The position numbers and the translations under genes were made by a program. DNA of 63,655 bases, filler included, from Folioceros fuciformis (taxonomy: Eukaryota): assembly GCA_049999805.1 (NCBI GenBank). It is 4 parts of 2 records of this genome, joined end to end, with 100 filler letters (N's around TTAATTAATTAA, not from the genome) between each part and the next. Parts side by side here need not be neighbours in the genome. Positions count along the whole stretch, not along the records: positions 41,670 to 62,166 come from JBNGIO010006264.1; 3 more parts are not named here. One strand, given 5' to 3'. Positions 57,170 through 62,166 of this stretch are shown here, one piece after another (position 1 is the first letter of the stretch; each line of letters starts with the position of its first letter). A model generated the notes under the pieces. The model did not search any database and was not told the DNA's origin. It saw only the letters and a list, made by a program, of their open reading frames with translations.

Positions 57170-60100
57170 TGTCACGATACCAAAGGTGAGCTTAAGATTG
57201 AGTAAGCAGCGTGAAACAATTATCCTTTAAATAATTATTAGTTTAGGATAATGCCATTTAAATGTTGGCAATTAGCAAACGCTAAACCCTAATTAGTAAA
57301 CACCAAAAACTAGAGAACGTGGATTAGGGCATGCTTGCAGCTGCCCTGCTGAAACCCATGGGCCCACACCGAGAGTGTGAGCCCAACCAAATGAGCATGA
57401 CTCAAAGAGTCAAGCCCGCTCCAGAATTGCTGACGTCAGCTATGGCTGCCACGCTAAACCCTGGAGATGGAGATGGAGGCCGCTAGTCGTGGAAGTCGCA
57501 CCAAGGGAGAGTGCCTGTCGCTATCTTAGAAACTCAATTGCTTTTGTTGTTCCAACCATATTTGGGCTCAAGAGATGTAAGGATTGATGTTCTTTGTATC
57601 TCGCTGCAGCACCTGGTGTGATTTACCCGACTCCAAGCTGCCTGGCATAGGCAGCCTGTCAATCCAGTTCTTCCAACAAAAACATCTAGAAACCTACGTG
57701 TGAGCAGATTCCATGTCACTTCGACGACTAGCTGCAAGATCTGCGTGCAACTCGGCTTAGAGGAGGTGGTGACGCACCTACAGCAAGGCGCCATCCTCCC
57801 CGTCTCGCCAGCCGCCAGCTGCAACGCTGACTTAACAAGTTTAGGGTTACCAACCTTCCAAGGCTCATAGCGCCCGCATTACAGATTGGTTGCCATTGAT
57901 TCTTATACCATTTGACTCGCCTTGTCAAGGCAAGCAATTTGGTATGCTTTGTGTGCGATTTGGAGCCCTATCTAGGGATTGACTGCATTTGAAAGTTTTA
58001 GACAGGGTTTTGCTCTTGCTGCATTTGTTTTGATTTTTGATCTGGCATCGCGAGTGAGCAAGGCCGCGTGCTGCAATCTTCACATGTGAGCTGGAGTTTT
58101 GCTGTGCTGTGTTCCTAAATCCTAGGGCAGACATAGGGAATTGTGGGTGTTGCAGCATGATCAAAACTAGAGCAGTTGTGCTTTCTGTTTTGTGCTGGGG
58201 AGGCATCTAGTGTTCTCTAACATGTGTGCTTGCATGCCACCTCTTGCTGAGAATTGGTCGTTTGTGTGCGAGTTGTTGCATGGGTTATGCAACCTAAGGA
58301 GCCTGAAGGCAGCCCACGTTATCATCTGCGATCGAGGAACGTCCCTGCTAGGGTTACACCGGAGCGTGGACGAGCCAAGAGGAGGAGAGCTACACGTCAG
58401 CGACGTTTGTCTTGGGAGGAAGAGGTCCAAGAGGACCATCAAGCTGGGCCAAGTGCTGTAGACCAGCAGCAACCAGAGATCGAGAGTTGGTCTCCATTTG
58501 TGGGCTGGACAGCCACAGCTGCCCCCATAGTTCCTTTGGGAAGCCAAGGAGCTGGCTTTAATTGTCCTGTAGTCACAACTGCGAGGCTAGGGTCTCAAGG
58601 TCAGGCAAACCTCTCTAAGGATTCAGATACTGGATCCATGGAGGGAGGAGCACCTTACAAGCAGGAGAGATTCTCCAAGAGACCAGGGACATAGACTTTG
58701 CAAGATTTCAGATTGCACCTCAATGTTGTCATCAGTCGGGTAAAATTCAAGCATGCTGGAGCTTACAACCATTTGTATATGTTCGAGCAACTTTCAAGTT
58801 ATCTGACAGATGAAGCTCTGGACCTTTATGAGCAACATCAGGCTAAGCTCACAACCATGGTGTCCATGCCTAATCCAAGGTTCCAGGAGGCTCTTCAGCT
58901 GGCTTACAACGCCAAGCTGGCTGCAGCCATTCAGGGCCATCAGCAGGCCATTGTTGCGACCACAGTGGCACCAATAGTGCCACCCCCAACGGTCGTGACT
59001 CTTACACTAGATGAAAGGATAGCAGCCACTGTGGGCATACCCGATGAGTTGCAGGTTGCTAAGTATGCCAACCCCGTCGAAGAATTCATGGGCATTCTGG
59101 AGAAAGCCTTCTCATTGAAGACTCTGGAGAAAATTGCAGAGGTGGCATCTTTTGCTAGGAAGAAGGGAGAAACCGTGCAAATGGCGTTCTGTAGACTGCA
59201 GAAGCTATGTGAGGGCATAGGGATGCTAACGGACTAGGAGGCAGCGGAGAAATTCCTAACAGCCTTGGAAGGAGACCCACTCTTTCACTTTCAGCTCATC
59301 ACAACGTTGGTGGATAAATATGGTGATAGGTATACCTTGGAGCACGTACACGAAGAAGCTGAACACAGGGAGATCGCTTTCTCTGCATATGCTTCACAAC
59401 ACTCCAAGGCATTTACTCATTACCAGTCCATGTTCTCCACAAAGGGGTCTACTACAACAGGTTCATGGGCCAAGTCACAGCAGGCCAAGCTTGTCAAGGC
59501 TGGAGCAGTTGCAGCTACAGTTGCTTCTTTGTGCAACTACTAAGGCAGTTTTGAGCATATGATCCCAGCATGGAAATGCCCACCGGAAGGCTTGTACTGT
59601 ACACATTGTCACAAGAATGGACATGTGGTCACAGTATGTTTTCAGAAACATCCAGAGAGAAGATCTCAGAAAAATGCAAGTAGTGGGACAGGGACTACAG
59701 CAGTCGATGCTGGAGGTACAGCTACCACAGAAGTTGGTATTAGTGTTGGGGTCTCACGTAGCCGACAACAAAGGGACAAGGCCAAAGCTAAGGCTGCATC
59801 CAATGCAGAGAAGGTATTTGCCCTAGAAGCCATTGTTGCAACGTTATCTTCATAGCTGGGCGTGCTTACAGCCAATCTCAGTAGTGGAGCAATCTCACCC
59901 AAACCAGCGAGTGTTGCTGAACTGGTCAGAGACAAGGAGGAGGATTACGGCTCACCACATCAGGTGTGTGTCGCCAACTGGATGGAGGCTGAGATGACAA
60001 CTACTGAGTTGCCACAAACGTGGGTAGGGCAACATTTATACCCACCAGTGTTGGAGACAGCAGCAGGGCCAGTCACTCGGCAGCGAGGAGTGAGGGCGGT

Positions 60101-62166
60101 CATGCCCCAATCTTTTGCACCATTGTCACCAGGAAGTGCAATCCCAGTCCGAGGGCAAGAGCACTCCACATTGGCAGGAGGGCCATAGACAATAGACAAG
60201 CCTCCACCGCAACCACAGGTGTCAGCCAGTGGGCCAGTCTACTTGATGCCCAGGGCCTTCACTGTGGAACAATTATCTGAGAAACTGAGTGGCATTCCTC
60301 TATTTTCTTTGCAAGACATGGGGCTAGGACATGAGCGTTTGCCCAAGGAATTGCAACCAGCGCAAGCAAGTGTATTGTCTTCAGGAGCATCATGCTGGCC
60401 ACTAGCTCCAAATGGGTGGGTGGTACCTGGTAGCATCTCACCTTGCACCAGGGAGTCAGTAGTTGGAAGCATGTTTGAAGTTGCAGCAGCTGGAAGTCAG
60501 CCTGAACAACCCATTAGCTCTCCGAGGATCCAACCCACCAACCGTCGAGCAGTTAGAGTCGGCAATGCACTTGTTGACAATGATGCAGGGCATATTACAG
60601 TGAATGGGTATGCCCCAAGGGTTGTACTGCTCGACACTGGTGCTCAACCAGTGATCATTGGCAAGACATTAGCTGCCAGGCTCAACCTCGATGGTTCAAC
60701 TCTCAAGAGCTCTCCTTGGAGCATAAGGACAGTGTCAAGAGCCATTGAGCCAGTCGCCAGAGCGACTGTCAAGCCTGTGGATATCACACTCAAGCCAGGC
60801 ACTCAAGATGCCATGATCCTGAGTCTTCCATGCCTAGTGACAACAGCCACAAACTATGACGTGCTGTTAGGGCAAGAATTTTTGTTTCCACCAGGTTTAA
60901 GTGTGGACAACTGGACAAAGCAAGCGTATTATCGTCCAGATTGGAAGCAAGAAGGGAGAAGGGTGGCACACTTACCCCTTCGGTTGCATGACATGTCAGA
61001 GGCTGACACAGCTACACTTGTAGAGCGACAAGCCTGTACAGCAGTCCTGATCAGTGAGGGAACACCCTTGGCCAACAACCATTTGCAGGATGAGGACCAC
61101 CTAGAGTCAAAGCAAGAGGAGGAGCACTGTGACAGCTACTCCAGCAACAGCACAGCCACATGCAGACTGACAGATCTGATCAAGGCCACTAACCATCCCA
61201 CACAGGTTGAGGGTGTGCTGTAGGATGCTTACGAGCATGTCGAGCAGGTGCAAGCTCTGTTGCAGCGAGGACTCAAGGATCCCATGCAAGAGCATGTTGT
61301 CAAGCCTCATGTGATTGATTGGCCTATCCCAGCCACCGCCCTTTTTCTCGTGGAGCTGTTTGGCGGCATTTGTACTCGCCTAGAGGCTTTGCTTAAGGCA
61401 GGCCTCCCTATCAGGCGTTATGTATACTGTGACAGCAGCGGGGAAGCACGGCAGATAGTTGCTCATTACTGACAGGAGCTCCGCAGCAGGTTCCCCACAC
61501 AGCTATCGGAGGTAGCCTTAGCTGCCACATTCTCAGCGCTGCCTCAAGATGTCAAGTACATCCAACAAGGCCACATCCAGGCCCTGGGATCCATAGACGT
61601 GCTAATAGCTGGTTGGGAATGCCAAGGGTTCACCCAAGCAGGCGCAGGAGCGGGGTTGGAGGACAAGAGGGACTCCGTGCGACATGACATGGTAGTTGTG
61701 GAGCACCATCTTGGTGCTCCCTTTCTTTTGGATGCTGTCCAGGTGGGTAGTTATGCGCACCGTCTGCGCAACTACTGGACCAACTTCATCCCTAATTCAG
61801 TCTTGGCACTCGTGCTTCGCAACACGAAGAGGGATCCCACCTTGCAGCTGTAGGATGTGTTGGATGCAAATCATGAACCCAGGCCTGTGGTTGCTAGTGA
61901 GCGACCACCCTGGCATCCAACTAGTACACCGGGTCAGCCTCGCAAAACATTGTGTACCCTGGAGAGCTTTCCTGGGTCCTTTGCCTATCGTGGCAACGGC
62001 GCTGGATTGCTATACAACACCACCACAAAGCAATGGGAAGAGCCCCACATTGAGGAGCGTGAGCAGATCATGGGCTTTGCAACACATGCCACGACAGCAC
62101 CGTAGGTTACAATCTCTTAGCGCTATGCTGCTATCGGTCGAGCTATGGACTTGCACGCCATCACTT
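57170..62166 (+). mobile_element. Nested retroelement (probably Ty3/gypsy-type) with a gag-protease-DNA methyltransferase polyprotein; runs into the gap
   Basis: Starts TGTCACG where copia integrase homology stops. One reading frame from ATG 58287 to 62166, broken only by in-frame stops: knuckle CTHCHKNGHVVTVC, aspartic protease LLDTGAQ...YDVLLG, then an MTase domain. RT and integrase are not visible, so the superfamily is inferred. Confidence 0.8.
61341..62166 (+). pseudogene. DNMT3-like C5 cytosine DNA methyltransferase domain within the retroelement polyprotein, inactivated
   Basis: Motif I LVELFGGICT, motif II-like YVYCD, motif III-like PQDV, motif IV DVLIAGWECQGFTQAG..GLEDKR, motif VIII-like LLDAVQVGSYAHRLRNYWTN, motif IX EEREQIMGF, motif X AAIGRAMD. 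Four stops; the ENV (motif VI) segment appears deleted. Confidence 0.82.

Follow-up and report, generated by a model that had tools for sequence, protein, structure and literature searches.

A probable relic of a Gypsy-type retrotransposon carrying a DNMT3-like methyltransferase in a land-plant genome

The genome assembly GCA_049999805.1, labelled Folioceros fuciformis, contains a locus that raises the question of whether a land-plant retrotransposon can carry a DNA methyltransferase (DNMT) of its own. Within the stretch of DNA analysed here (63,655 nucleotides, referred to below as the window), an earlier note, made from the sequence alone, had described a retroelement whose gag-protease polyprotein continues into a DNMT3-like cytosine methyltransferase. 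We conclude that the locus is a dead Ty3/Gypsy-type long terminal repeat (LTR) retrotransposon of the streptophyte Gypsy-DNMT3 lineage residing in a land plant, a reading to which we assign a probability of about 0.85. The window copy itself is a fossil without function.

The element is delineated by one reading frame. Between positions 58254 and 62166, frame 1 of the plus strand contains 10 stops in 1304 codons (at nucleotides 58692, 59235, 59541, 59853, 60186, 61221, 61470, 61851, 62103 and 62118; eight TAG, one TAA and one TGA), compared with 45-69 stops in each of the other five frames. The nine open reading frame (ORF) fragments that the earlier note had listed before 62105 indeed share this frame, and translation placed the gag with its CCHC knuckle, the DTGA signature of the protease and the C5-methyltransferase motifs where that note had put them (Table 1). 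Residues 274-462 of the gag region align to the gag of the predicted protein P0009 (E 7e-7 pairwise and 2e-5 by BLASTP against the database), and Pfam detects zf-CCHC in the relatives P0216, P0177 and P0184. The protease matches the Pfam family gag-asp_proteas over residues 781-877 (E 5.3e-8, 33.8 bits) as well as Asp_protease_2 (E 5.4e-7), so that a knuckle-bearing gag and a retropepsin, two of the features expected of a Ty3/Gypsy-type element, are both present in the copy. After a gap of approximately 130 residues, the same frame enters the methyltransferase, in which motifs I, IV, VIII, IX and X follow in the canonical order and motif VI has been deleted. The proposed direct passage from gag-protease into a DNMT3-like domain is thus upheld, the more so as this arrangement is colinear in independent proteins. 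Because motif VI is gone while the relatives possess all six motifs, the window copy is a relic of a C5-methyltransferase family member rather than a working member; the stops and this loss also bear out the claim that the copy is dead.

Table 1. Coordinates of the features of the DNMT element and of its surroundings (positions along the whole window)
Feature	Position	Strand	Basis or remark
Gag region	58287..60185	+	starts at ATG 58287; 5 in-frame stops; translation
Degraded first zinc knuckle	59529-59579	+	translation
Canonical CCHC knuckle	59598-59639	+	translation
Retropepsin-type aspartic protease	60594..60884	+	DTGA at 60633-60644; Pfam
DNMT3-like C5 cytosine methyltransferase domain	61281..62166	+	four in-frame stops; ends at contig end just past motif X
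Motif I, ELFGGICT	61353-61376	+	translation
Motif IV, GWECQG	61611-61628	+	catalytic Cys kept, Glu replaces Pro; translation
Internal deletion, ~36 residues including motif VI (ENV/ENT)	61665..61691	+	gap in alignments to P0002 and P0009 and in family alignment
Motif VIII, AHRLRNYWTN	61755-61784	+	translation
Motif IX, EREQIMGF	62055-62078	+	translation
Motif X, IGRAMD	62133-62150	+	translation
Putative 5' LTR and leader of DNMT element, begins TG	57170..58286	+	inferred from end of copia homology and loose ends at 57169
Fragment of a broken Ty1/copia-like pol, with protease barrel and C-terminal SH3 of integrase	55878..57170	+	Pfam
Assembly linker, contig end	62167-62266	.	cuts DNMT-element frame after 62166
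Assembly linker	22834-22933	.	same composition as linker at 62167-62266
Assembly linker	41570-41669	.	same composition as linker at 62167-62266
LRRNT_2-LRR ectodomain and kinase domain	42457-45551		Pfam; same contig as DNMT element
Two intronless PLS-class PPR genes, one with full E-DYW deaminase tail	16864-18822; 35469-38567	+; -	Pfam
tRNA-Pro(CGG)	39081-39152	-	

The methyltransferase call is settled by homology to relatives of the domain, which themselves pass the Pfam cut-off: PF00145 scores are 58.4 bits in P0216, 56.7 in P0277 (which covers profile positions 3-322 of 324), 51.1 in the first ORF of the metagenome locus L001 and 28.9 in P0313. The 314-residue DNMT part of the window copy matches 36 proteins of 551-2000 amino acids with E values from 1e-52 to 3e-19, and a further 12 proteins of 172-550 amino acids; in BLASTP comparisons it retrieved P0002 (E 2e-54, pairwise) and P0009 (E 9e-68 in the database, 3e-69 pairwise). 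An exhaustive phmmer search with the protease and DNMT part together yielded 1,047 cluster representatives under a threshold of E<=0.001; 572 of them were at or below 1e-10 and 158 at or below 1e-30.

As to the kind of methyltransferase, a profile built from 16 family members and compared with the sequences in PDB gave its best matches to DNMT3A (E 1e-24), DNMT3C (3.5e-23) and DNMT3B (7e-22), followed at weaker scores by the tobacco DRM (1e-13), M.HhaI (8e-11), DRM2 (2e-9) and DNMT2 (2e-6); DNMT1 was absent among the 60 matches listed. An AlphaFold model of the intact domain of L001 (mean predicted local distance difference test score, pLDDT, 92.8) was matched in Foldseek by DNMT3A, DNMT3B and DNMT3C only among the matches listed (best E 8.5e-21, TM-scores 0.73/0.83). 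Both the sequence profile and the modelled fold of the relatives therefore support a DNMT3-like domain, probably nearer to DNMT3 than to DRM, DNMT2 or the bacterial enzymes, as had been proposed. The cellular DNMT3A, DNMT3B and DNMT3C share with the family the canonical motif order and a closely similar motif VIII but differ in several respects: identity in the structural alignment is only about 21-23 %, the family lacks the PWWP and ADD reader domains, its motif VIII-IX region is longer and many of its members have ECQ at the catalytic site.

The organization of the complete element emerges from its relatives. Altogether, 192 proteins were fetched, of which 152 contain a full-length DNMT domain and were typed by local BLAST with domain pieces. 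In 104 of the 152, the order is reverse transcriptase (RT), RNase H (RH), DNMT, integrase (INT) and in some cases a PHD finger, or a fragment of that order; 17 show the order (gag-)protease (PR)-DNMT(-RT), to which the window copy belongs; and 31 consist of the DNMT domain alone. The predicted proteins of the PR-DNMT kind that are free of stops (P0009, P0216, P0277, P0177, P0183, P0184 and P0285) combine the knuckle, the protease and DNA_methylase in varying ways and contain neither RT nor integrase. Among eight relatives scanned with Pfam, the PF00145 cut-off was reached in 6/8 and a protease was found in 6/8, with RT or integrase in 0/8; P0009 shows the same pattern. The PR-DNMT junction is colinear with that of the window copy in P0009, P0183, P0216, P0285, P0313 and the loci L001-L004. 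The missing RT between PR and DNMT was also considered as a deletion, an explanation that we rejected since the clade as a whole descends from a form that already had the PR-DNMT junction.

A metagenome scan with an alignment of the PR-DNMT proteins provided 50 loci, 13 of which (L038-L050) are weak DNMT matches that probably lie outside the family. PR is found upstream of DNMT in 27 of the 50 and RT downstream of it in 24, with no locus among the 50 having RT or RH directly upstream of DNMT; five loci (L001, L003, L008, L017 and L031) contain PR, DNMT, RT, RH, INT and PHD, all in this order. L001 consists of two ORFs of 1369 and 1047 amino acids in one frame with a single TAG between them, the first encoding a protease and DNA_methylase and the second RVT_1, RT_RNaseH, Integrase_H2C2, rve and PHD according to Pfam. 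The coding sequences predicted in these near-intact metagenome relatives show the full element to be gag-PR-DNMT-(in-frame stop)-RT-RH-INT-PHD. Accordingly, the order PR-methyltransferase-RT-RH-INT that had been expected for the family was recovered in the 24 loci with RT after DNMT, and the expectation of paired LTRs was borne out in one relative only. The degraded locus L031 has 300-nt direct repeats of 92 % identity, 8,674 nt apart, around its coding region, which we read as putative LTRs; the search for LTRs in other relatives found no repeat family for L001 and L017 and merely a 144-nt tandem pair in L003. Among the flanking ORFs of the metagenome loci, a PIF1 helicase was the only identifiable one, and nothing was diagnostic of a host.

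The one homologous DNMT module is thus seen in two positions, between RNase H and integrase in a group that includes the proteins with chlorophyte names and between protease and RT in one that includes those with streptophyte names, and in elements of both kinds (proteins P0002-P0312, loci L001-L037) the integrase is followed by a terminal PHD finger.

Phylogenetic analysis of the DNMT domain was performed with FastTree (159 rows) and with IQ-TREE under a mixture model (87 rows, comprising all 23 rows of the PR-DNMT type, or type B, the 32 domain-only rows in full and 32 rows drawn at random from the 102 of the RH-DNMT-INT type, or type A). The window DNMT falls in a set of 30 rows, 22 of the PR-DNMT type, 8 domain-only and none of the RH-DNMT-INT type, which received a support of 95 in both trees; the long-branched L036 is the sole type-B row outside this set. 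The nearest rows to the window DNMT are L018 (48 % identity), P0172 and P0176. Furthermore, the 30-row set includes P0216, which bears the NCBI name Klebsormidium nitens, contains zf-CCHC, protease and DNA_methylase domains (Pfam) and is about 31 % identical to the window copy, and the Closterium sp. protein P0163; chlorophyte proteins that bear names have the RH-DNMT-INT architecture. The window DNMT thus groups with a Klebsormidium protein, P0216, which may be one of the published KnitGypsy-Dnmt3 copies.

The idea that the lineage is special to this plant did not hold, given the Klebsormidium and Closterium proteins in the clade and a closely similar protein from a liverwort. The latter, P0313 (411 amino acids, Calypogeia fissa, a leafy liverwort), was found as a cluster mate of a protease match and consists of a retropepsin and the first half of the DNMT, including ECQ and ENT; it aligns to residues 757-1149 of the window copy with 36 % identity (E 3e-78). 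Two proteins, P0313 and P0258, carry the NCBI name Calypogeia fissa, and the liverwort record is chromosome-scale. The lineage is thus present in the public genome of another land plant, apparently without comment in the literature searched.

The junction between the two coding parts of the relatives suggests how the methyltransferase might be expressed. A single in-frame stop separates DNMT from RT in L001 and L003, and L002 and L004 have one extra stop each (stop positions: L001 5083, L002 2081, L003 4661, L004 4509). In these four, the least damaged loci, TAG is followed by CAG TTA (L001 and L002), CAA TCA (L003) or CAA CCA (L004), that is, by the exact UAG-CAR-YYA context of the Type I leaky stop of tobamoviruses, whose consensus is given as UAG_CAR_YYA (PMC3542737); all six bases of the context agree with it. 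The likeness comes from related loci, at a site beyond the end of the window's contig, and readthrough is a prediction. The stop site was also located in further loci (L005 4430, L006 12131, L007 4245, L010 12071, L015 1789, L016 1345, L017 3631): in six degraded loci the homologous '...A * QP' site reads TAA or TAG and then CAA CCC, and in L015 it reads TAG TAG CCA. As a background, the leaky-stop motif occurs 33 times in 343,422 nt (any frame, plus strand).

The conserved position of the stop in the relatives and its context in the four loci suggest a Gag-PR-DNMT product and a Pol produced by readthrough. Under this scheme, the DNMT would be made as the tail of an abundant Gag-PR-DNMT protein, at the level of Gag, and only readthrough of the leaky stop would give the polymerase-integrase-PHD part. 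The DNMT would then be packaged and travel with the particle and, once released by protease cleavage, could methylate new complementary DNA or the insertion site. The PHD finger of the integrase could read histone tails and choose targets, as the chromodomain does in chromoviruses. The window copy, with its 10 stops, missing motif VI and CpG decay, is capable of none of these steps.

Several retrotransposon-borne methyltransferases are known. The closest precedent, KnitGypsy-Dnmt3, comes from Klebsormidium nitens and has been described (de Mendoza et al. 2018; PMC5890265) as likewise a Gypsy-type LTR element with an unrearranged, intronless DNMT3-type domain in its polyprotein and under purifying selection; it differs in its host, Klebsormidium as opposed to a land plant, and the window copy has ECQ where P0216 has PCQ. 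The green-algal and metagenomic polyproteins of the RT-RH-DNMT-INT-PHD kind (among them P0002, P0004, P0013 and P0016, and proteins of Chlamydomonas eustigma and Cymbomonas) contain a homologous DNMT (33-37 % identity, E down to 1e-52) and share with the PR-DNMT kind the motif quirks and the PHD after the integrase; however, their DNMT lies between RNase H and integrase, whereas that of the relatives of the window copy lies between protease and RT, and the DNMT tree sets the two architectures apart. SymbioDIRS-Dnmt3 and SymbioLINE-Dnmt of Symbiodinium are also retrotransposon-borne DNMTs, and the SymbioDIRS enzyme is reported to perform de novo CG methylation in yeast, but these elements belong to other classes (tyrosine recombinase and LINE), reside in dinoflagellates and, according to the authors, represent independent captures (PMC5890265). 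The EpiLTRs of Cymbomonas and Euglena are likewise LTR elements with a cytosine DNMT, which their authors describe as sister to DNMT4, located at the 3' end of pol and accompanied by an adenine methyltransferase and a chromodomain (bioRxiv 10.64898/2026.05.21.726589). Unlike the EpiLTRs, the family described here has a DNMT3-like domain upstream of RT, and neither the adenine methyltransferase nor the chromodomain, the hallmarks of EpiLTRs, appeared in Pfam scans of P0001, the L001 ORFs and the RH-DNMT-INT polyproteins.

The Gypsy-DNMT3 kind of element has accordingly been published, from Klebsormidium, and the host range seen here is wider than that found in print. Later summaries give the hosts of Gypsy-DNMT3 as 'streptophytes' (PMC12344493; bioRxiv 10.64898/2026.05.21.726589). 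Full-text literature searches, with figures and supplements outside their reach, returned no report of a transposon-borne DNMT from a land plant; the printed reports of transposon-borne cytosine DNMTs that they retrieved concern dinoflagellates, Klebsormidium ('streptophytes'), Cymbomonas and Euglena only.

A broader proposal, which we advance tentatively and regard as possible though somewhat doubtful, is that land plants carry or recently carried a multi-copy lineage of LTR retrotransposons encoding a de novo methyltransferase of DNMT3 type, made as the tail of an abundant Gag-PR protein ahead of a tobamovirus-type leaky stop. The transposon enzyme would have acted on embryophyte genomes beside the host DRM, CMT and DNMT3, and the lineage, with members in Klebsormidium, Closterium, the liverwort and this plant, would have been inherited from streptophyte algae. 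Normally it is the host that methylates transposons, in order to silence them; a cytosine methyltransferase carried by the transposon turns this picture round. The window copy and the annotated liverwort protein extend the lineage to embryophytes, in which methylation pathways are best understood and which are genetically manipulable. The relatives would supply a concrete expression scheme (Gag-PR-DNMT, leaky UAG-CAR-YYA, Pol-PHD), and this scheme adds to their interest, as does the placement of a single DNMT module at either of two positions.

A number of observations weigh against our interpretation of the locus and of its family. The window copy scores 17.4 bits with PF00145 (E 0.0031), below the 22-bit cut-off, and a search of PDB sequences with the broken polyprotein produced no matches at E<=1. 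The window lacks any RT, RNase H, integrase or PHD of the family as well as a second LTR, and the relatives that show the full element are only 30-48 % identical to the window copy. Most of the named relatives are algal (Chlamydomonas eustigma, Cymbomonas, Closterium and Klebsormidium). The exact leaky-stop motif is present in only 4 of 24 loci, of which L001-L003 are close kin. Finally, the sub-lineage of the window copy has Glu for the usual Pro before the catalytic Cys, and the DNMT of the Klebsormidium element yielded no de novo methylation in yeast, a result called inconclusive in the source (PMC5890265).

The last two points lead to the alternative that survives best, namely that the domain of the ECQ sub-lineage, including the window copy, is a non-catalytic module which binds DNA or S-adenosylmethionine or recruits host factors, so that the elements do not methylate themselves. 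Glu stands in place of the near-universal Pro in the window copy, in P0313 of Calypogeia and in 70 of the 159 family domains (a further 44 have PCQ, 9 have other residues and 36 were not matched by the regular expression), and the yeast result with the Klebsormidium enzyme, inconclusive as it was called, points in the same direction. Conversely, the catalytic Cys is invariant, ENV/ENT and HRxRxxWxN are near-invariant, motif I is kept across the family, and the PCQ and ECQ forms are mixed inside the same clades. Comparisons among near-intact loci, all of them with PCQ, gave the DNMT domain a ratio of nonsynonymous to synonymous substitution rates (dN/dS) of 0.10-0.13, a further point against this alternative; among the 50 metagenome loci, 49 have PCQ and L018 alone has ECQ. 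We consider a non-catalytic module unlikely. The earlier note had remarked on EC instead of PC in this copy, a substitution that is typical of the family; EC as a mark of the decay of this copy is rejected on this count.

Another possibility is a non-autonomous origin, with the window copy, or the entire sub-family in this genome, consisting of gag-PR-DNMT without RT-RH-INT and being mobilised in trans. This would agree with the lack of any family RT or INT in the window and with the existence of deleted variants, in which 59613 is joined to 61572 (a single contig from each of two DNA runs, X1 and X2, of one sample with the same organism label). However, the window is composed of four contigs chained by identical linkers, each made of 44 N, a 12-base six-frame stop spacer and 44 N, at which any feature reaching them is cut by the assembly, and the frame of the DNMT element stops at 62166 because the contig ends there at such a linker, not through biology. 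The RT-RH-INT-PHD part and the 3' LTR, if present, therefore lie outside the window. Since the contig end falls about 120 codons short of the point at which the relatives carry their stop, the absence of RT-RH-INT behind the DNMT is not readable from the window. In addition, all 24 of the loci (24/24) that reach recognisable coding sequence past the DNMT run into RT. A non-autonomous derivative is accordingly improbable.

The predominance of algal names among the relatives, along with the assembly of the window from separate contigs, could also mean that the contig of the element is a contaminant from an associated green alga. The host of the window is well supported as being of land-plant type from its predicted genes, in agreement with the earlier proposal: it contains pentatricopeptide repeat (PPR) genes with a DYW domain and a leucine-rich repeat (LRR) receptor kinase gene. 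All named proteins among the 120 matches listed for the DYW protein are from land plants (conifers, ferns, a lycophyte, a liverwort, Ginkgo and Sphagnum), with the best named identity being 45-49 %, to a lycophyte, and the top identity 53 %; none of the 120 bears a hornwort name, and the hornwort affinity suggested in the earlier note is neither favoured nor contradicted by them. The PPR-E, PPR-E-DYW and CDC48 genes are located on contigs other than that of the element. The plant-type LRRNT_2-LRR receptor kinase gene, by contrast, is on the same contig as the element, the composition of which resembles the rest of the window, and the chromosome-scale liverwort record encodes the same PR-DNMT arrangement. 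These observations make contamination still more improbable than a non-autonomous derivative and argue for a resident of the land-plant genome. The PPR genes and tRNA-Pro(CGG) are typical of land plants rich in RNA editing.

The remaining alternative, a fragment of a host DNMT3 gene brought beside a gag-protease relic by chance or misassembly, has nothing in its favour beyond the weak Pfam score of the window copy and can be dismissed, because one continuous frame spans the junction and the junction is colinear in the proteins and loci enumerated above.

Having settled on a Gypsy-DNMT3 element, we turn to its surroundings in this genome. Immediately upstream lies a broken copia-like pol fragment recognised by Pfam through Pol_BBD (E 2.7e-16) and SH3_retrovirus (E 9.9e-17), the latter match breaking off at profile position 55 of 73, which corresponds to nucleotide 57170. 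One contig each in X1 and X2 departs from the window sequence just before 57169. The DNMT element appears to have been inserted into an older copia-like element, and we place the start of its putative 5' LTR at 57170 because the copia homology ends there and the X1 and X2 contigs diverge at 57169. A 12-base initiator-tRNA primer binding site (PBS) motif had no match with up to 3 mismatches on the plus strand of 57170-58286, and the inner end of the LTR was not found; at this tolerance the motif occurred 50 times, where 58.8 occurrences were expected. One exact copy of the PBS motif is located at 53534-53545, approximately 2.3 kb upstream of the broken copia pol, and this match and the pol fragment at 55878-57170 look like parts of one copia element interrupted at 57170.

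The runs X1 and X2 contain 35 % and 31 %, respectively, of the sampled words of the stretch. Over 55500-62166 they provide 819 (X1) and 717 (X2) short contigs of 90-99 % identity that cover all 30 bins, contig counts not being copy numbers, and the differences in X1 comprise 298 transitions and 90 transversions. Such a pattern is what a multi-copy family with diverged members would give in this organism label, and searches of the window with blastn and tblastn found no further copy of the element within it. The contig in each run that joins 59613 to 61572 skips 1,958 bases and represents an internally deleted variant. A further run, guessed to be RNA, has a single contig, on the copia part alone, which says nothing about expression. 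The ratio of observed to expected CpG is 0.38 in the element compared with 0.62 in the whole window; the low CpG and the eight TAG among the ten stops would fit deamination of methylated cytosines.

Beyond the linker that terminates the contig of the element, a unit of about 60 nt is repeated in tandem roughly three times at the start of the window's last contig (62267-62430). Downstream of the repeats are frames interrupted by stops, with a high content of Glu, Ala, Gln and Lys; this contig start is unrelated to the DNMT element.

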